Source: Shigella phage vB_SflS-ISF001
DNA: 50,552 nucleotides
Direction: 5' to 3' (one strand)
Sequence record: MG049919
In this document: positions 3,728 to 45,913 of the stretch, piece by piece
Position numbering within the stretch: position 1 is the first letter of the stretch
Layout of the letters: each line of letters opens with the position of its first letter
Notes under the pieces: generated by a model
Seen by the model: the letters and a program-made list of their open reading frames with translations, nothing else
Told to the model about the DNA's origin: nothing
Databases searched by the model: none
Program-made: the position numbers and the translations under genes

Positions 3728-4129
3728 TCATACCACAGCCTTTAACCAGAATCCTAGATCTGACCATTTAAACTCAACCAGCTTTGCGTCAACCTCAAGC
3801 ATCATACTGTTTATACCAGGTGAGTAATAACCTATATGCAACACCTGATCGATCCCTATGCTACACAGCACGTTTGCGAAGTCAGGAGGCAACCAAACAG
3901 AGAAAGGTGTTTTCTTAACCTGCTTCTTTCCGATCCATATGGTCTGGTAAGCGTCTCCGTTAATGTTTAAGCCTGGAAGGCTTGTTGTTCTTTGCTGCTT
4001 TTCGCTCTCTCTCATTTCTCTTTCCCTCTTCACGATAAAACTCAAGTGACGGAGTTGCTGGCACTCTATGCATTTTTCTCGGCATATCTTCCATAAATGA
4101 AATCTTGCCGTTTGAAATAATGCTAACAT
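3728..4129 (-). CDS. hypothetical protein (start uncertain; alternative internal start near 4018)
   Basis: ORF track; ATG at 4129 has poor RBS spacing, internal ATG at about 4018 has AGGGAAAGAG RBS; no domain recognised. Confidence 0.4.
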   Translation of the reverse strand: MLALFQTARFHLWKICREKCIECQQLRHLSFIVKREREMRESEKQQRTTSLPGLNINGDAYQTIWIGKKQVKKTPFSVWLPPDFANVLCSIGIDQVLHIGYYSPGINSMMLEVDAKLVEFKWSDLGFWLKAVV

Positions 4130-4476: not shown

Positions 4477-4495
4477 TTTTAGCAATTAGAGCTGT
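4477..4495 (-). promoter_or_regulatory. degenerate 20-mer motif copy
   Basis: Minus-strand ACAGCTCTAATTGCTAAAA; upstream of gene 4210-4419. Confidence 0.3.
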
Positions 4496-4734
4496 GTGAT
4501 TATCTCAGAAGAAAGTTCTTCTACGTCTTTTCGGATGATTAATCGCCAATTCTCAATGTATTCATTCCTTATCTCTTCGAAAGACATATCAAGAGAAGTA
4601 GTGAACTCCCACAGATCGCAACCAGTAACATCCTTAGTCAATCCATTTCGCACCTTAATCTCGCAGCACGTAGCTCGATAAAGTAGCCATAAACCTTGCT
4701 CAGTTAATATAACAGGAACCCTTTTTTCGCTCAT
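4486..4734 (-). CDS. hypothetical protein (82 aa)
   Basis: ORF track; ATG 7 nt after stop of methylase gene (operon coupling). Confidence 0.45.
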   Translation of the reverse strand: MSEKRVPVILTEQGLWLLYRATCCEIKVRNGLTKDVTGCDLWEFTTSLDMSFEEIRNEYIENWRLIIRKDVEELSSEIITQL

Positions 4735-5506: not shown

Positions 5507-5526
5507 GTTTTAACAAAAAGTGCTAT
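5507..5526 (-). promoter_or_regulatory. 20-mer motif copy upstream of Dam methylase gene
   Basis: Minus-strand ATAGCACTTTTTGTTAAAAC; CATTAT 22 bp downstream. Confidence 0.55.
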
Positions 5527-8047: not shown

Positions 8048-8500
8048 ATGAATATTCAACGTATCGCAGAGTCAACTGGTGAAATCGATACACGTCACAA
8101 CAATGGTAACAACGGAACACGACGCGGTAAAGATAAAATGCCTCGACTGCGCTGCGGCTTCTATATTCATATAGAAGAAACACGCGCCGGATTGCCAGCG
8201 CGACTTGATGCGCTTATCGTATATTATGGTGGCCCTGCGGCCTCCGCAAAAGCTCTAAAGGTTAGCATTCAGACGGTGCAAGGCTGGAAAGTACGCAACA
8301 TGATTTCGTGGCAAGCTGCTGAAGCTGCGCATCGTGCTTCCCGACGACAGGGGTGTAAAGGGTTTCGTGCCGCATGGTTGCGATTCGCCCTGAAGTTTGA
8401 CGGTAACGGCAAGTGCCTTGAGAAGCGATGCAAGATCAAGAAATTTATGCGCGTCGTGAAGAAGGAAGATATCGGGACGACCAATAGCATTTTTAGTTAA
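8048..8500 (+). CDS. HTH DNA-binding regulator (Cro/YdaS-like)
   Basis: HTH segment GGPAASAKALKVSIQTVQGWK; AGGAGAA RBS; canonical sigma70 promoter upstream; rho-independent terminator downstream. Confidence 0.55.
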   Translation: MNIQRIAESTGEIDTRHNNGNNGTRRGKDKMPRLRCGFYIHIEETRAGLPARLDALIVYYGGPAASAKALKVSIQTVQGWKVRNMISWQAAEAAHRASRRQGCKGFRAAWLRFALKFDGNGKCLEKRCKIKKFMRVVKKEDIGTTNSIFS

Positions 8501-12573: not shown

Positions 12574-12595
12574 TTTAGCTATTTGTGCCGTTTAC
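12574..12595 (-). promoter_or_regulatory. degenerate 20-mer motif copy upstream of annealing-protein gene
   Basis: Plus-strand TTTAGCTATTTGTGCCGTTTAC; TATAAT in hairpin TGAGGTG/CACCTCA downstream on minus strand. Confidence 0.4.
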
Positions 12596-13656
12596 TTGAT
12601 TTGATATCGTACCCATGACGGCGTTTCAAGTTCAATCTCGCTTGCATCGCCAGCGTATCCAGGCCAAACATCCATTTCAGAGCAAGCCTTGTAAGTGTGG
12701 ACTACGCTAATGTACTGGTTACGACCGATCCTGATTTGCTCCATAATCATACGGTAAGCTAGTGCGATATAAGGTTCTTTTTTCTCCTGCGCAAGCAATC
12801 TAACCACGTTCGGGATATCTTCCGGGAAGTTTCCTTCAAAAGCGCCAGCCTGGATTGCGCGTCGTTGCAGGTCATGCTGTAAGGCCATTTTCAGATAATA
12901 CGCGAGAGTGCATCCCGGTCGCGGGAACTCTAACGGGATGGCGCTCATCGTAGTTTTGAAGTCAGTAATAATCAGCGCTTCCGGGAAATTTACGTCTTCA
13001 TACACCGGATCGCCATTCTCATCATAACCAGTCAGGACACGACCTGGAACATTCTCCTTGTAATCAAGGTGGTCAAGTCGAACATTAACCTTGACGCCGG
13101 ATATCTCACCGAAGATTGAAATCAAACGCTGCGCCGTTTCGCTGTTGATACACGCTTCATGATCCGGATTTTGCTCAAGTATGGCTCTCATCTTCATGCA
13201 GGCGTCGTATTTATCAGCGTCAACGGGTTTCTTTCCTTCAGCGCGCGCCTCAGCTTCTGCGATCAGTTCAATCTGGTATTGAACGTTGAGTTCTTCACCG
13301 CAATCAACCATCATTTTGATGAGGTCAGGGTACTGCTTCCCGGATGTACCTTTCAGGCCAAATGATCTTAATTTTGCCGCTAGTGCAGCTTGCGAAGTAA
13401 TGAGATCTTTAAACTCTGCCGGAGCCGGGCAACGGGCATACGATGCAGTAAACAGATCTCGGTTCTCAAAGTTGGTGTGCGACTGAGTACCAAACTCCAG
13501 CGCTTTAGTCGTCTCGTTCTTCTTGAATGGCCAGTTAGCCGGGCAAGTCTGATAAATTTCTGCAAGGCTCGAACCGCTTTCATACTCTGCCGCCCAACCT
13601 TCGTTACTATGATACCCGACATTAGAAAGCTGAGTTGATGTGAATACTTGGAACAT
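12592..13656 (-). CDS. recombination exonuclease (lambda Exo/RecE-like, PD-(D/E)xK)
   Basis: IITDFKTT (D-x-K) core; first gene of leftward unit behind TTGACT-16-TATAAT promoter; AAGGAG RBS. Confidence 0.6.
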   Translation of the reverse strand: MFQVFTSTQLSNVGYHSNEGWAAEYESGSSLAEIYQTCPANWPFKKNETTKALEFGTQSHTNFENRDLFTASYARCPAPAEFKDLITSQAALAAKLRSFGLKGTSGKQYPDLIKMMVDCGEELNVQYQIELIAEAEARAEGKKPVDADKYDACMKMRAILEQNPDHEACINSETAQRLISIFGEISGVKVNVRLDHLDYKENVPGRVLTGYDENGDPVYEDVNFPEALIITDFKTTMSAIPLEFPRPGCTLAYYLKMALQHDLQRRAIQAGAFEGNFPEDIPNVVRLLAQEKKEPYIALAYRMIMEQIRIGRNQYISVVHTYKACSEMDVWPGYAGDASEIELETPSWVRYQIK

Positions 13657-13687
13657 TGCGTTTATCTCCTTCGTTTACGATGAATCC

Positions 13688-13715
13688 ATTATAGCCATTA
13701 ACGGCGTTTAGTCAA
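13688..13715 (-). promoter_or_regulatory. sigma70-type promoter for exonuclease-Erf-SSB unit
   Basis: Minus-strand TTGACT - 16 bp - TATAAT, about 30 nt upstream of exonuclease ATG. Confidence 0.6.
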
Positions 13716-14125
13716 TCGAATACATGTAATTGGTGTGTAATAGCGTGTCTATATCGCTCAAGTTACAACCAGCATTAACGGAATCAATTGCTTAAGTCTA
13801 TTTTTATGTGATGTCTACTGTGTAATACTTGTAACCGCTTTTTCTTAGAAATACAGAGATAGCTACAAGTAGAATCCATATTGATTAAATTTTGAACATA
13901 TATGATAGAAATTTGACGAATCAATCAAATCACCAGTTACACGATAGACAACTGTTACACAACAATAATTATATATATAAAGCTAAAATTAAATATTATC
14001 TATCTATATATATTATATAGAGTTTTTATCATATCCCTCTGCTGTCGGGTGGGGTGGATTTTGTAACACCCGCTCCGGTTACAAAAATAGACACCCGTTA
14101 CACGAAAAAAACTGTAATCGTGCTA

Positions 14126-14154
14126 TTGCAATAAAAGTAAATGCGACATACAAT
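14126..14154 (+). promoter_or_regulatory. sigma70-type promoter for 14184-15373 unit
   Basis: TTGCAA - 17 bp - TACAAT; partial 20-mer motif (CGTGCTATT) abuts the -35. Confidence 0.55.
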
Positions 14155-14183
14155 GCAATCACACTAACGACGAGGACATACAA

Positions 14184-14414
14184 ATGATAAAGTTAATCAC
14201 CATTATTGCTGCGGCATTCATCCTGACTGGTTTTGCTCAGAATCATAAAAATGGCGACTGCGTTACTTTCGCGTACGGCTCTTGCATGATGCGATTCGTT
14301 GATGGTAAAAGGGTTCCGGCTGGCGAAATTGGCACGCCATTCAAAGGTCTGTGGTCCGACGACGATCAGGGCAACTTTAGCGCCAAGGTAAGAATCATAA
14401 CTAAAGAGTGGTAA
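14184..14414 (+). CDS. small secreted protein (76 aa, signal peptide)
   Basis: N-terminal signal MIKLITIIAAAFILTGFA; 2 Cys in mature part; GAGGA RBS; sigma70 promoter TTGCAA-17-TACAAT upstream. Confidence 0.55.
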   Translation: MIKLITIIAAAFILTGFAQNHKNGDCVTFAYGSCMMRFVDGKRVPAGEIGTPFKGLWSDDDQGNFSAKVRIITKEW

Positions 14415-14416
14415 TT

Positions 14417-15373
14417 ATGGGGCAAGGAATATACATAAATCTAAATGACGGTCGCCCGGCAATGGAGATAATTTCAGGGCTTCGCGCCCCGTCATGGTGC
14501 GGACCTATACAGGCTGACGCGGTTGATTCATCTGGATCGGTTTTTGATTTTGGTTTGCAAATGAGTCGAGGGTCTACTGCTTTTTGCCTTCCATCTCAGG
14601 CTATCTACATAGACGTTAAGCATTACATCCCGGAGGTGTATTATTTGACCAGTTTTCAGAAGGTCAATGTTTCAACCGGACGAATAACGGTAGGTAATTT
14701 AAACGGGCATGGTGGAACGAGGATGAGATTTTATGGAAACTGCTACGAAATCCTCCCCGCTCAGGATGGAAATCAGGGGATACTTGTTAACGATTCAACG
14801 AACTTCGCAGCGATCCCTAATAACGCAAGATTGATGAGCGCAAAATTTGTTGGCGGGATTCAAGTTAACGGTCAGGCTCAGTTGCCAGTACAGGGCGTTC
14901 CTTTCGGTATCTGGGATAATCCAAACGTAACACTTGAATCTGACGGCAATACAATATCATGCAGGGATGCAAACTATAACGGGATTGATGACGTTGGCGC
15001 TAGCGTTTACGTGCAACTCGTAATATTTAATAATACTCCACCACCTCCTGGGCCTGGAATAACTATGAGTAACCCTGCTGGGCAGATCGTTTTCTCAAGC
15101 GTCAGACGCCCCTTCGTTCTTGGCGGGACGATGGCGATAAATGATGGTTGCCAGTGGTGCGGTGGATTTTTCCCAATCCTGAGAACAGGTACGATATGCA
15201 GAGTTACAGGTGGATATAATAACATTCGATACAAGGGCGTTTGCATCAGCGGCGGTAACGTGAGAAGCGCACCCGGAACAAGGGTAGGTAACTATTTTAC
15301 TCAGAGCGGCGCTCAATTTCCCTTCAATATAAACATTTCAATGCCTATTCCTTTCACTCCAAACATGTATTAA
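14417..15373 (+). CDS. hypothetical Pro/Cys-rich protein (318 aa), possible receptor-interaction or exclusion factor
   Basis: ATG overlapping upstream stop; PPPPPGPG linker; Cys-rich C-terminus; ends at bidirectional terminator shared with J. Confidence 0.5.
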   Translation: MGQGIYINLNDGRPAMEIISGLRAPSWCGPIQADAVDSSGSVFDFGLQMSRGSTAFCLPSQAIYIDVKHYIPEVYYLTSFQKVNVSTGRITVGNLNGHGGTRMRFYGNCYEILPAQDGNQGILVNDSTNFAAIPNNARLMSAKFVGGIQVNGQAQLPVQGVPFGIWDNPNVTLESDGNTISCRDANYNGIDDVGASVYVQLVIFNNTPPPPGPGITMSNPAGQIVFSSVRRPFVLGGTMAINDGCQWCGGFFPILRTGTICRVTGGYNNIRYKGVCISGGNVRSAPGTRVGNYFTQSGAQFPFNINISMPIPFTPNMY

Positions 15374-27794: not shown

Positions 27795-28754
27795 TTACAC
27801 GCCAGTGATTGAGACAATAGTCATCGGACGATAAATTGTAAGGCCAGTACACTTGGAGGTGCAAGGCACTTTATAGTGAAGGTCTTTCGGCTGCGCTGGC
27901 AGCATGTTAAATGCTTCCGGGATCTCGATGGACTTTTTCATCGGATTTTTTTCGTACACCAGTACGCCTTTAGTACCCGCACCGTTGATATCTTCAAGCT
28001 CTTCGATAGAGTCGATTTCGATACCAGCATTCTGAGACTTGAAAAAGTCCAGGTAAGACATGGTAGTTTCAGGCATACGGATCGCCAGAACCTTACGCAT
28101 GGACGGCGGGATCAGAATGTTGGTTGCACGATGCTGACCGCGAGTAATCGTCTCGATGGTTTCAATCGCCTGAGTCAATTCCGCTTCAGCCGTTTCCGGC
28201 TTCGGAGTTGAGACATTCATCCACTTACCGGAGGTAATTTTGGTGATGTTCGGATGGTTGAACACGGACACGATCTTGTGCGGCGCGGAACCTTTGAACA
28301 CCAGACGGTTAACCAGTTGGTCATGCGCTAACTGACACGCGCTTGCCTTGCGGGTTGACAGCGGTCGACCAGTTGCCTGACCTGCTTTGATTTCGTCGAT
28401 TGAAATCAGGTACGCGTTACCCAAGCGGAACACCTTACCGAACTCAGAAGTACCAAGCGCATCACCCAGAGGCAGGTCATCTGTATAGTCAGCGATAATC
28501 TGCGCACTACCACCCTTATCAAAGGTCATATACACAAACATCTTGTCGGTCGGAGATAGATCGGTAGTAAACGGGAATACTCGAAGTGCGGAGCCTACCG
28601 GGTAGTCTTCTACATAGGACTGGCTTTTGATGCGGTGTAGTTCCTGAGCGGGCCAGATAGCCATCGTTGCGGCTGCATCCTGTGTTACGCCAGCCTGGAT
28701 CAGAGACATTTCAACATTGCTCTTAGCTGCTTCATCAAATTTTTTAGTAGTCAT
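27795..28754 (-). CDS. major capsid protein (putative)
   Basis: 319 aa, downstream of scaffold and decoration genes and followed by a strong terminator; TAAGGAG RBS; no motif-level confirmation. Confidence 0.6.
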   Translation of the reverse strand: MTTKKFDEAAKSNVEMSLIQAGVTQDAAATMAIWPAQELHRIKSQSYVEDYPVGSALRVFPFTTDLSPTDKMFVYMTFDKGGSAQIIADYTDDLPLGDALGTSEFGKVFRLGNAYLISIDEIKAGQATGRPLSTRKASACQLAHDQLVNRLVFKGSAPHKIVSVFNHPNITKITSGKWMNVSTPKPETAEAELTQAIETIETITRGQHRATNILIPPSMRKVLAIRMPETTMSYLDFFKSQNAGIEIDSIEELEDINGAGTKGVLVYEKNPMKKSIEIPEAFNMLPAQPKDLHYKVPCTSKCTGLTIYRPMTIVSITGV

Positions 28755-37344: not shown

Positions 37345-37364
37345 GTTTTAGCAATTAGTGCTAT
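37345..37364 (-). promoter_or_regulatory. early promoter cassette (20-mer + 22 bp + TATAGT in hairpin)
   Basis: Minus-strand ATAGCACTAATTGCTAAAAC; TATAGT within GGTGA/TCACC hairpin; leader CATCGACAACGAA. Confidence 0.6.
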
Positions 37365-42829: not shown

Positions 42830-42851
42830 GGTTTTAACAATTCGTGCTATT
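42830..42851 (-). promoter_or_regulatory. early promoter cassette
   Basis: Minus-strand ATAGCACGAATTGTTAAAAC; TATAGT 22 bp downstream; leader ATCGAAACGAGA. Confidence 0.55.
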
Positions 42852-43317
42852 TAGTGAGATACTTTACGCCTGTTCCGGCAACCTCATTCCAGACATCCTC
42901 AAAGTGTACGCTATAGCAAGTTGCAGAACGCAGGCGTTCCTTCGACACAGTGCGCCACACCTTACGTCCCGAGTAACCAGTCAGTACTCGGATCCCTGGC
43001 AACAACGCACCCGACTTTCTCACCTTAATGGCAACAGCTGAACCAAGCCCGAACGACTCAAGGTCAACTGGGTCAATCATATCGCACATGCGGCGATCTT
43101 CGTTCTCGTCTGCCCATTCACAGCCATCTCTACACTTCATAACTTCAATAATACATACCAATTTCTCAGTTAGTGAGTTTGAACCATATGTGTCTATATC
43201 AATAACCGTGCAGTGACTGTACATATGGGAATGCGATCCGGTAAAATGCTCAAACGCGAAGAATGACATTTCATCATCAAGCACATCTTTAGCCAGAAAT
43301 ACGGTAATGGTTGTCAT
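42847..43317 (-). CDS. hypothetical Cys/His-rich protein (156 aa)
   Basis: Start at internal ATG overlapping upstream stop (track ORF to 43389). Confidence 0.45.
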   Translation of the reverse strand: MTTITVFLAKDVLDDEMSFFAFEHFTGSHSHMYSHCTVIDIDTYGSNSLTEKLVCIIEVMKCRDGCEWADENEDRRMCDMIDPVDLESFGLGSAVAIKVRKSGALLPGIRVLTGYSGRKVWRTVSKERLRSATCYSVHFEDVWNEVAGTGVKYLTK

Positions 43318-43319
43318 GA

Positions 43320-43514
43320 TTAAGCCTCTGCAAAGTAAGTGATAAAGCCTTTGAGAAAGTAGTCGCTTCCAACTCGCTCCACGACCCATGTCAGAGGCGA
43401 GTGATACGCAACCATATCCTCATGGTCGATCGTGATTTCGGTTCCTTTCTTGTACAGACCCTTCCCGTGAGTAGAGTCGCGCAGAACAACCACTACGTCA
43501 ATTTGCGTTTCCAT
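43320..43514 (-). CDS. hypothetical protein (64 aa)
   Basis: ORF track; GAGGAAACAAAG RBS; promoter cassette upstream. Confidence 0.5.
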   Translation of the reverse strand: METQIDVVVVLRDSTHGKGLYKKGTEITIDHEDMVAYHSPLTWVVERVGSDYFLKGFITYFAEA

Positions 43515-44503: not shown

Positions 44504-44920
44504 AGGTTTCTCCTTAGTTTCAATATACACAATGATTAACGCGTAACAGCGCGTCTCTAATTGCAGTGTTACACGACGACCCGCCTGCGTCAAGGCTTGC
44601 AGGTCGATTTTAAGTGTGGTTAATCGTGTTAATCGTGTTAATCGCTTTCCCCATATAAATATGAGCCGATAAAACTACTGTATATATAAACATGAATACA
44701 ATAATCAGAGCATCCAACGATTAACATAGTAGACACGCTATACAACCATATTACAGATAATAGTATCTATATATATAAATAAAAAAAATACTTATATATT
44801 ATATATATACATATAGATATATGTATATTATAAGGCGTAATTTGGTGTAATTTTGTCTACTATTGAGATTCAGGCAAATTGTAGACAACTGTTAACACAC
44901 GGTCAAGTGTAACCGTAATC

Positions 44921-44940
44921 GATAGCACGTTTTGCTAAAA
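44921..44940 (+). promoter_or_regulatory. 20-mer motif copy inside control region B (no obvious -10 or gene)
   Basis: ATAGCACGTTTTGCTAAAAA; about 265 nt upstream of first rightward gene. Confidence 0.4.
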
Positions 44941-45125
44941 ATGGAGATAACCACCAGGCGAACCGGGTAACACCAGATCCTCCCTCTCACAATCATTGCA
45001 TTCTAAGCAACAAATAAACCAACTGTTGCACACCGTGCAATAATCACGTTTCATCATTCGTAATCAATAACAATCAAGGTTATTACACCTATTCCAGTAT
45101 TGATGGAATAATGAGCAATTATTGG

Positions 45126-45145
45126 AATAGCATTTTTTGCTAACG
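45126..45145 (+). promoter_or_regulatory. early promoter cassette for rightward unit
   Basis: ATAGCATTTTTTGCTAACG; tandem GGTCGGGTA x2 then GTATAG 22 bp downstream; leader AACCAATCAGAAGAGGAAG. Confidence 0.55.
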
Positions 45146-45205
45146 ACTCGGTCGGGTAGGTCGGGTATAGTCCGGCCCATAAACCAATCAGAAGAGGAAG
45201 CAACA

Positions 45206-45910
45206 ATGAAATTAATCTGGTCACTATACGACGGTTCTGGTCTTGCAAATCTTGAGCTAGCAAAGCAAGGCCATAAGGTGATGTGCTTCAACTGGGACGG
45301 AGCCGATCACGGAGTTTACGCAAAGTACAACGCCAGGGTTGAGCGTCATAACATTGAGTATGTGAACGTCTTTATTAATGAGAAGTTCGAACGTGATGCT
45401 ACCGCGCCTGTGTATGGCAAGCCTGATTTAATCAGGGCATTTCCTCAATGCACTGACCTGGCTGTTAGTGGCGCTGGTCACTTCGTAAGAAAGCGTGAGC
45501 GAGATCCGTTATTCCAGGAGAAGGCTGTTGCTACCGCCGGGATTGCTGCGAATATTGGCGACTCTCTTGGCGTGACTTACATATTTGAGAATCCGGTGAG
45601 TGTCCTGTCATCTGCCTGGAGAAAACCAAATCACTCCTTCAACCCCTGGGAGTATGGCGGCTATCTTCCTGAGAATGACGCACACCCCAAGTTCCCTATG
45701 TATATTGCGCCGCGCGATCGTTATCCGAAGAAAACTTGTCTTTGGACCTCGGACGATTTTGTCACACCGGAGAAAAAAAAAGTAAGCCTGCCTGACGGGT
45801 ACTCTACGCATCACAGCAAGCAGGGCAGCAAGTCGGTAAAGACGAAGCTGATACGATCCCTGTCGCAGCGTGGATTTTTCCCGGCGATCGCAAATAGCAC
45901 TTTTTGTTAA
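45206..45910 (+). CDS. putative DNA methyltransferase (weak C5-cytosine-like motifs)
   Basis: LYDGSG (motif I-like), FPQCTDLAVSGAG (PC-motif-like), IFENPV (ENV-like); ATG with AGAGGAAG RBS (track ORF from 45137); assignment tentative. Confidence 0.4.
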   Translation: MKLIWSLYDGSGLANLELAKQGHKVMCFNWDGADHGVYAKYNARVERHNIEYVNVFINEKFERDATAPVYGKPDLIRAFPQCTDLAVSGAGHFVRKRERDPLFQEKAVATAGIAANIGDSLGVTYIFENPVSVLSSAWRKPNHSFNPWEYGGYLPENDAHPKFPMYIAPRDRYPKKTCLWTSDDFVTPEKKKVSLPDGYSTHHSKQGSKSVKTKLIRSLSQRGFFPAIANSTFC

Positions 45911-45913
45911 AAC
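45894..45913 (+). promoter_or_regulatory. early promoter cassette
   Basis: ATAGCACTTTTTGTTAAAAC overlapping last codons and stop of methyltransferase-like gene; CATAAT 22 bp downstream. Confidence 0.55.

Follow-up and report, generated by a model that had tools for sequence, protein, structure and literature searches.

The DNA analysed here (the window) is the 50,552-nucleotide (nt) sequence of Shigella phage vB_SflS-ISF001, record MG049919, a complete T1-like genome (Tunavirus, Drexlerviridae), and the element in question, region A, is its non-coding stretch at 13657-14183, which makes up 1% of the window. The left neighbour is recE (12592-13656, minus strand), part of a recE-erf-ssb operon; the right neighbour is a phage lipoprotein gene of 76 amino acids (14184-14414, plus strand; PF24052), and a DUF6453 membrane protein gene is also located on the right side. 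An earlier reading of the letters alone (the sequence-only reading) had described a 527-bp non-coding spacer between a leftward recombination unit and a rightward unit at 14184, which is borne out by these neighbours and by internal open reading frames (ORFs) that are not conserved as coding. The 1.1 kb around region A has matches in 64 Escherichia/Shigella phage records, the top one being Shigella phage vB_SsoS-ISF002 (98.1%). Taken by itself, the 527-nt intergenic stretch has 100% identity to that of ISF002, at least 90.7% to all 59 covering records and 93% to T1. In some relatives the cor gene substitutes for the right-hand gene and the intergenic DNA is retained. RecE is just 94% and gp12 90% identical between the window and ISF002 despite the 100% identical intergenic region (window 12592-14183), a contrast that points either to mosaic recombination, with the element as breakpoint, or to an exceptionally strong constraint acting on the element. 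No similarity to the region A element was found in E. coli chromosomes, prophages or plasmids, for example in a satellite with a common origin.

Two divergent sigma70-like promoters lie at the edges of region A. PL, the promoter of the recE-erf-ssb operon, reads TTGACT-16-TATAAT on the minus strand (13715-13688; 11/12 match), and PR, the promoter of the lipoprotein/DUF6453 unit, reads TTGCAA-17-TACAAT on the plus strand (14126-14154; 9/12 match). We aligned 16 Tunavirus sequences over region A, and all statements on invariance in this region refer to this alignment; the hexamers of PL are invariant, as is PR. The two canonical sigma70 promoters of the sequence-only reading are therefore present where it placed them and are invariant or almost so. 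A block equivalent to the -35 region of PL, TAGTCAATA, is kept in other genera. An additional inward-facing candidate, TAGAAA-18-TAGAAT (13846-13875, plus strand), is weak (9/12 match), with both hexamers conserved and a variable spacer. Its predicted start lies at ~13882, at the beginning of an invariant block.

Three short motifs are concentrated between these promoters. Region A harbors seven of the 27 GTTACA copies in the window, where 0.28 are expected (binomial P ~1e-8). Expectation was also derived for TAGACA, TTACAC and GTTACA from 2000 dinucleotide-preserving shuffles of the AT-rich region itself, in which GTTACA occurs 0.51 +/- 0.72 times and never seven times (0/2000). TAGACA is present four times (of 17 in the window) versus 0.33 expected and TTACAC five times (of 23) versus 0.54 expected, counts that are reached by 1/2000 and 0/2000 shuffles, respectively. 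The 50.5 kb contain just two copies of the 17-mer ATAGACA-N3-GTTACAC, at 13944 and 14087, and both lie in region A. The repeat cluster of an iteron-type origin, with at least three copies of a short motif, is present in region A. Neither PL (13688-13715) nor PR (14126-14154) contains GTTACA, TAGACA or TTACAC, and the overlap between operators and promoters seen in lambda OL/OR is not found. As the motifs stay clear of the -35 and -10 elements of both promoters, simple operator occlusion is unlikely.

The oriented listing of these motifs resolves four composite units, U1 and U2 facing left and U3 and U4 facing right, around a 70-nt AT core; at least four composite repeats pairing TAGACA(C) with GTTACAC/TTACAC had been claimed from the sequence alone, and with counts far above those of the shuffles this claim holds. 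U1 (13735-13767, minus strand) is composed of GTGTAA (13735), N5 and TGTCTA (13746), then GTTACA on the plus strand (13762), and is located ~45-90 nt upstream of the PL start site; its TGTAAT, GTGTCTATAT and CTCAAGTTACAAC are invariant. U2 (13812-13836, minus strand) reads TGTCTA-C-TGTGTAA-TAC-TTGTAACC, or GGTTACA-N4-TTACAC-N2-TAGACA as the reverse complement, and ACTTGTAACCGC is invariant within it. U3 (13936-13960, plus strand), GTTACAC-GA-TAGACA-ACT-GTTACAC, abuts the AT core, and its GTTACA and GTTACAC are invariant. The example string given in the sequence-only reading, GTTACACGATAGACAACTGTTACAC, is indeed present; its true place is 13936-13960 and not 13934-13956, the coordinates being 2-4 nt off. 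U4 (14078-14103, plus strand), GTTACA-AAAA-TAGACA-CCC-GTTACAC, lies ~58-83 nt upstream of the PR start site and is conserved except in T1 itself, where TATACG replaces TAGACA. U3 sits in a 42-nt internal repeat with 14075-14116, the segment holding U4 (74% identity).

The AT core (13962-14031), located between U3 and U4, is imperfectly self-complementary and TATATA-rich, and is a candidate DNA unwinding element. The AT-type runs noticed earlier beside the repeats correspond to TATATA runs at 13970-13979 and 14005-14013 inside this core. We calculated duplex stability as nearest-neighbour free energy in sliding segments of 40-150 nt across the genome. At 60 nt, the genome mean is -82.0 kcal/mol with a standard deviation (sd) of 5.0. 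The A core has -54.7 kcal/mol (~5.5 sd away from this mean), and just one site in the window is less stable, at -51.9 kcal/mol (~6 sd); it lies at 44768-44827 in the core of a second element, region B. The third-ranked site reaches -64.9 kcal/mol (~3.4 sd). The B and A cores hold ranks one and two for low stability at every segment size. By computed energy, the low-stability AT element that accompanies the repeats of iteron-type origins is present here, melting itself being only predicted.

Region B (44505-45207) is a second large divergent intergenic region with the same motifs as region A, and contains the start of the T1 GenBank record. The window has five GTTACAC heptamers, and those that are not in A, two in number, are both in B. 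Region B also has three TAGACA and four TTACAC copies, among them TAGACA-N4-TTACAC and TAGACAACTGTTAACAC around a long TATATA tract, and shuffles reach its motif counts in 12, 5 and 13 of 2000 cases; because the motifs were defined from region A, this enrichment is an independent test. The B core (44755-44835) is nearly invariant in six Tunavirus sequences whose flanks are just 75-90% identical, and it aligns with the A core at 76% over 89 nt. Composite sites occupy 44842-44913, namely TAGACA-N4-TTACAC at 44845-44859 (minus strand), TAGACAACTGTTAACAC at 44882-44898 (plus strand) and GTTACAC at 44907-44913 (minus strand), and further sites are GTTACAC at 44568 and TAGACA at 44730. The TAGACA-N4-TTACA at 44882 is conserved in divergent relatives, and this unit is overlapped by a predicted leftward promoter, TTGACC-17-TACAAT. 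Another lineage carries TAGACAGCTAGACAAATGTTACAC in B where the window has a different repeat, and a TAGACA...TAGACAAATGTTACAC composite is perfect in one lineage at the place of an unrelated tandem repeat in the window. This 9-nt repeat, (GTG)GTTAATC, present three times at 44616-44645, is restricted to the window/LHE71 lineage, and other Tunavirus lineages have GTGTAACATTTGTCTAGCTGTCTAG there. Judged from these alignments, the sites in region B shift position between Tunavirus lineages with the motif itself retained.

Base 1 of the T1 GenBank record corresponds to ~45041 of the window, inside region B, and B therefore adjoins a packaging or terminal-repeat end. Directly beside T1 base 1 is a palindrome, TTGCAC-ACC/GGT-GTGCAA (45026-45041), which is terminator-like on the minus strand and lies in a 200-nt non-coding block highly conserved among Tunavirus; it may be a pac or terminase recognition site. 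The leftward early operon starting at B encodes a small early protein (43320-43514, minus strand) that matches PF25180, 'Phage antiviral trigger protein Gp54' (E=1.5e-27).

To place region A within the Drexlerviridae, we surveyed 35 RecE-anchored viral contigs with RecE 40-94% identical. The most AT-rich 60 nt upstream of recE is 77-92% A+T in all 35 loci, and this stretch begins 328-389 nt from the recE start in 34 of the 35, the exception being L039. In the loci read through, the non-coding gap around the AT core spans ~440-530 nt. The layout is independent of the neighbour, be it a divergent lipoprotein gene or a co-directional tail-fibre gene. The non-Tunavirus genera among these loci have no GTTACA and carry, at equivalent positions, 2-9 repeats of the TGTTC/GAACA type (TGTTCAC, TTGTTCTTTTTGTT, GAACAAAAGAAAACAA), which border directly on the core, inverted with respect to each other on its two sides, and are also found beside the recE promoter and ahead of the next promoter. 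Most AT cores contain a perfect TATAAT. We rejected a diagnostic word common to all AT cores, as they have just low-complexity words such as ATATAATA in common.

Beyond the window, we compared the complete genomes of two phages of different subfamilies, TLS and Rtp. In both, the element upstream of recE and that at the genome end are likewise the two lowest stability minima (z ~5 versus 3.4-3.6 for the third site). Both elements of TLS carry motifs of the TGTTC class, and both elements of Rtp carry GTTACA plus TATACA. As T1, TLS and Rtp all infect E. coli yet differ in their motifs, the motif determinant should be specified by the phage and not by the host. That the layout is kept while the motif changes would fit binding sites co-evolving with a phage factor. 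The A element of Rtp shares the GTTACA/TATACA class with Tunavirus, though most Rtp proteins are more distant from those of the window than TLS proteins are; the motif class is thus discordant with the overall phylogeny. In Rtp (L063), the ORF rtp46 (28260-28658) lies between the element and recE.

Variable sites were compared in 17 Tunavirus sequences, in which recE codon positions 1, 2 and 3 are variable at 6.2%, 8.2% and 58.5% of sites, respectively. The central block of region A (13882-14031) has 11 variable sites out of 150 (7.3%), comparable to recE codon positions 1 and 2, and the AT core has only 2 out of 70. The flanks bearing the units show 29-36% variable sites, but the motif bases themselves are invariant; the sequence-only reading had made conservation of the repeats in relatives one test of its proposal, and they are conserved. 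Three ORFs were considered as genes and rejected. JMPW1 and BIFF have a 2-nt deletion and Shfl1 a stop codon that disrupt the plus-strand ORF 13892-14020, and in relatives indels or stops likewise interrupt the minus-strand ORF 14079-14183. The third ORF, 13784-13924 on the minus strand (46 codons), annotated in T1 as hypothetical protein CPTT1_049 (WBY66053.1), is open in all 16 Tunavirus sequences, though with 8 synonymous versus 39 non-synonymous changes and no third-position excess; by this substitution pattern, CPTT1_049 is probably a mis-annotation. Since two of the ORFs are broken in relatives and the third is without coding-type substitutions, the constraint on the central block is not due to coding. 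An Rfam 15 scan of 13000-15000 on both strands gave no match at E<=1, and no RNA folding signal was detected in region A (z-scores of -0.30 and -0.75 for the two strands). Region A is a real, conserved and clearly functional cis-acting DNA element.

A predicted site for the integration host factor (IHF), AATCAATTGCTTA (13782-13794, plus strand), is located between U1 and U2 and matches the consensus WATCARNNNNTTR with 0 mismatches. It is one of 10 perfect IHF consensus matches in the window, and in 16 relatives (alignment columns 126-138) all positions specified by the consensus are invariant and the N positions vary. The invariant central block also contains an imperfect palindrome, ATTGATTAAATTTTGAACATA / TATGATAGAAATTTGACGAAT (13880-13921), with 21-nt arms that are 71% complementary. 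Another inverted repeat, TTTTGTAAC-N10-GTTACAAAA (14059-14086), has 9-nt arms that are 100% complementary and invariant, and its 10-nt spacer varies among relatives. A GC-rich hairpin followed by TTTT (14028-14062, plus strand) is weakly terminator-like and variable at 63% of sites; 90.6% of its cells remain paired versus 38-50% in slid controls, with covariation that is not significant.

The low-stability core, the twin element B, the layout kept with a change of motif, the IHF site and the position of the motifs off the promoter cores all lean to a nucleoprotein or unwinding site acting at the DNA level. We tentatively propose that A and B are a pair of origin-like nucleoprotein sites, comparable to oriL and oriR of SPP1, and we put the chance of this at somewhat below even. 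Most likely, A and B would each serve as a replication origin and also house divergent early promoters. A lineage-specified phage factor would bind the GTTACA/TAGACA/TTACAC units U1-U4, and host IHF would bend the DNA at 13782-13794 between U1 and U2. The resulting complex would melt the AT core (13962-14031), possibly aided by transcription from PL, PR or the promoter at 13846-13875, upon which synthesis would be started by host Pol III together with the primase and helicase of the phage. Protein binding to the units, melting of the core and a replication start at region A are all inferred.

A more specific version of the proposal, which we advance with greater reserve, is that A and B represent an undescribed origin pair of the Drexlerviridae, in which a near-invariant AT core and lineage-specific repeats are read by an early phage protein with IHF. 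The GTTACA/TAGACA class would then belong to Tunavirus and Rtpvirus, and the TGTTC class to Tlsvirus and the other genera. An SPP1-like division of labour is possible in such a pair. By analogy, one site could initiate and the other could stall forks, leading to a switch to recombination-dependent concatemer synthesis by RecE/Erf/SSB.

A number of observations weigh against an origin at region A. Direct repeats at regular, helical spacing, as in iteron-type origins, are not found there. The units are composite, and the minus-strand pair (U1, U2) and the plus-strand pair (U3, U4) are arranged as an inversion about the centre, with spacings of 16-19 nt within units and ~70-143 nt between them. 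Of the iteron layout suggested by the sequence-only reading, the conserved short repeats beside an AT-rich tract between divergent promoters stand, but these are not classical iterons; its pair of options, an origin or a multi-operator hub, is still the right one and is partly supported. An unwinding element needs AT-richness and not near-perfect identity, which argues for an additional sequence-specific role of the core. Perfect DnaA boxes (TTWTNCACA) are absent from A and B. GATC is missing from 905 nt (13459-14363 of the window; 13479-14383 of ISF002, on which the scan was run, its intergenic region being 100% identical to the window), versus a genome average of ~1 per 200 nt. By annotation, the window phage has a gene for a Dam-type DNA adenine methyltransferase. 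Cumulative GC skew has its minimum at ~45 kb, in region B; as skew follows gene orientation and transcription direction, it is uninformative on the origin. In other genera the repeat nearest the recE -35 resembles an A-tract UP element, and the invariable position of the element upstream of the recE promoter fits promoter control equally well.

The candidate factor is another weak point of the origin proposal. No initiator or origin-binding protein was recognisable in the annotation or in Pfam and PHROGs scans. The sole helix-turn-helix (HTH) protein of the replication module is gp12 (8048-8500), encoded between the helicase and the primase, with weak similarity to the HTH of P22 Cro (Pfam E=0.004; PDB 1rzs E=0.008). 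A hint from three genomes (Q versus K at the start of the recognition helix) was lost with 49 homologues, among which the TGTTC-class helices, QT(V/I)(Q/N)QW, are much like the QTVQGW of Tunavirus. Because the recognition helix is alike in both motif classes, gp12 is not a class-specific binder, and we rejected it as the factor reading the motif class. It is plausible that gp12 instead binds a dispersed repeat that is conserved across genera. This repeat, ATAGCACnnnTTGnTAAAA, is mostly intergenic and oriented with transcription, and has 29 matches within 3 mismatches in the window versus 1.95 expected (e.g. 725-743, 5508-5526, 37346-37364, 44922-44940 and 45894-45912). Region A was rejected as a member of this ATAGCAC...TTGnTAAAA family, as 0 of the 29 matches fall in 13657-14183; a lone ATAGCAC lies on its minus strand at 14120. 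The genes common to the window and Rtp and absent from TLS (42847-43389, 4486-4734, 3728-4129 and 2258-2434, all on the minus strand) have no DNA-binding signature and yielded no candidate.

The same features could instead belong to a control hub of early transcription, in which the units bind a phage activator or a looping repressor for the divergent early promoters and the core is promoter-rich or curved DNA. We regard this as the main rival and a serious alternative, though less probable than an origin. Much of the layout suits it: A and B are the two large divergent intergenic regions, each with conserved sigma70-like promoters on its flanks; U1 and U4 stand at distances from PL and PR that are typical of activators; the IHF site is placed between upstream sites, as is classic for looping; and most cores contain a perfect TATAAT. 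The promoter overlapping the unit at 44882 in B, the UP-element-like A-tract next to the recE -35 in other genera, and the Cro-like HTH protein gp12 also speak for regulation. However, the cores of PL and PR are free of motifs, U2 and U3 are >130 nt from either promoter and flank the AT core instead, and the motif class is not reflected in the recognition helix of gp12. A hub also leaves unexplained the extreme stability minima in three subfamilies and the near-invariant core sequence. A site for recombination or packaging, be it an entry or break site for RecE/Erf-driven replication or concatemers, or a pac-related terminase site, is improbable. Region A is directly upstream of the recE-erf-ssb operon in 35/35 loci, the T1 record starts in B abutting the palindrome at 45026-45040, and AT-rich palindromes tend to extrude as cruciforms and to be cleaved. 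On the other hand, A is ~20 kb from the genome end (~30 kb the other way on a permuted map) and headful packaging needs one pac site, the conserved palindrome by the T1 end is outside the motif/core part of B, and no link was found between the GTTACA/TAGACA motifs and terminase or RecE.

It is very unlikely that region A is conserved for an encoded product, either a small RNA of ~180 nt running from ~13882 to the hairpin/T-run at 14028-14062 or a small protein such as CPTT1_049. The invariant block does start at the predicted start of the 13846-13875 promoter and stop at the hairpin and TTTT, and one ORF is open in 16/16 Tunavirus sequences. Against this stand the folding z-scores and the Rfam result, the breaks in the plus-strand ORF, the excess of non-synonymous changes in the minus-strand ORF and the weakness of the hairpin, the covariation of which is not significant, and no equivalent ORF or hairpin is present in other genera. 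Least probable of all is an oriC-like origin dependent on host DnaA, with TTACACA and TGTTCAC as weak DnaA boxes. Four sites with one mismatch are present in A versus 0.97 expected, and TGTTACACA and TATTACACA resemble the R2 box of oriC. Nevertheless, neither A nor B has a perfect box, and relatives do not conserve the CACA part of the left-hand sites. Near-matches number 0 in TLS A and are at the expected level in A and B of Rtp. The lack of GATC in region A and the use of different motifs by phages of the same host also disagree with DnaA.

To our knowledge, the replication origin of T1, one of the seven classical T phages, has never been located. The origin of T1-like phages is reported as not found (PMC11447400 for TLS; PMC7718038); the genome papers on TLS and SU57 could find neither an origin nor iterons, and the TLS paper states that no iteron-like repeats occur anywhere in its genome (PMC11447400). 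Our literature search found no paper on this element, no mapped T1-family origin and no T1-family map of transcription starts, and the region A element is apparently undescribed in the literature searched. Region A is at present the leading candidate for the origin of the T1-like phages, and the T1 origin question is now narrowed to two bounded candidates, ~13.72-14.12 kb and ~44.55-44.92 kb. The motifs can be mutated and the core can be probed, and the comparison predicts a change of specificity if the motif class is exchanged between genera. The finding is of moderate to good interest, as the question becomes directly testable. An origin and its binding factor would help to explain how a phage without a polymerase or a recognisable initiator recruits the host replisome. 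T1-like phages are common laboratory contaminants and candidates for phage therapy, and knowledge of the origin would aid their engineering. If the function is transcriptional instead, A and B would be the master early control regions of the family.

Known phage systems resemble A and B in part. The lambda origin consists of four direct, regularly spaced iterons inside the O gene, which are bound by the O protein. It shares with the T1-like elements the clustering of short repeats beside an AT-rich, easily melted tract, and activation by nearby transcription is plausible in both. In contrast, the T1-like sites lie between genes, in inverted arrangement on either side of the core, and recur at a second locus, and no O-like protein was found. 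A summary of lambda ori is given in PMC11447400, and the same paper describes a dispersed 21-nt repeat, aaATAGCACnnnTTGnTAAAA, for TLS and T1. The dispersed repeat and the A/B motifs occur in the same genomes and in intergenic DNA, and one copy (44922-44940) adjoins B. They differ in sequence, and the dispersed repeat is upstream of many genes and conserved across genera, whereas the GTTACA/TAGACA composites are lineage-specific and confined to A and B. The primary origin of T7 and oriF and oriG of T4 combine, in virulent phages, a promoter beside an AT-rich tract with the phage's own primase and helicase, with no dedicated initiator and no need for repeated motifs. Compared with these origins, region A has the candidate inward promoter at 13846-13875 (weak, 9/12), and the window phage encodes no RNA polymerase.

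The satellite phage P4 depends in cis on two separated clusters of short repeats, ori and crr, to which its alpha primase-helicase binds. The T1-like primase has the same Zn-ribbon domain (PF08273), but at 311 amino acids it is without the helicase and origin-binding domains of P4 alpha. TGTTCAC of the non-Tunavirus genera may resemble the P4 iteron. SPP1, a pac-type siphovirus, has two origins of similar organisation, oriL and oriR, with repeats and an AT-rich unwinding element, and its AT-rich islands are the strongest sequence bias of the genome (PMC6316719). Unlike the T1-like elements, SPP1 origins have direct repeats bound by the origin-binding protein gp38, with a DnaB-type helicase and its loader; the T1-like elements have composite units of mixed orientation, no recognisable initiator, an SF2-type helicase and no sequence similarity to SPP1, and their origin role is putative. 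Both are nevertheless pac-type headful siphoviruses that use the host polymerase and encode a phage set of exonuclease, annealase, SSB and Holliday-junction resolvase, and both have two separated elements of repeats and AT-rich DNA, which in the T1-like genome are A and B, its two minima of helical stability.

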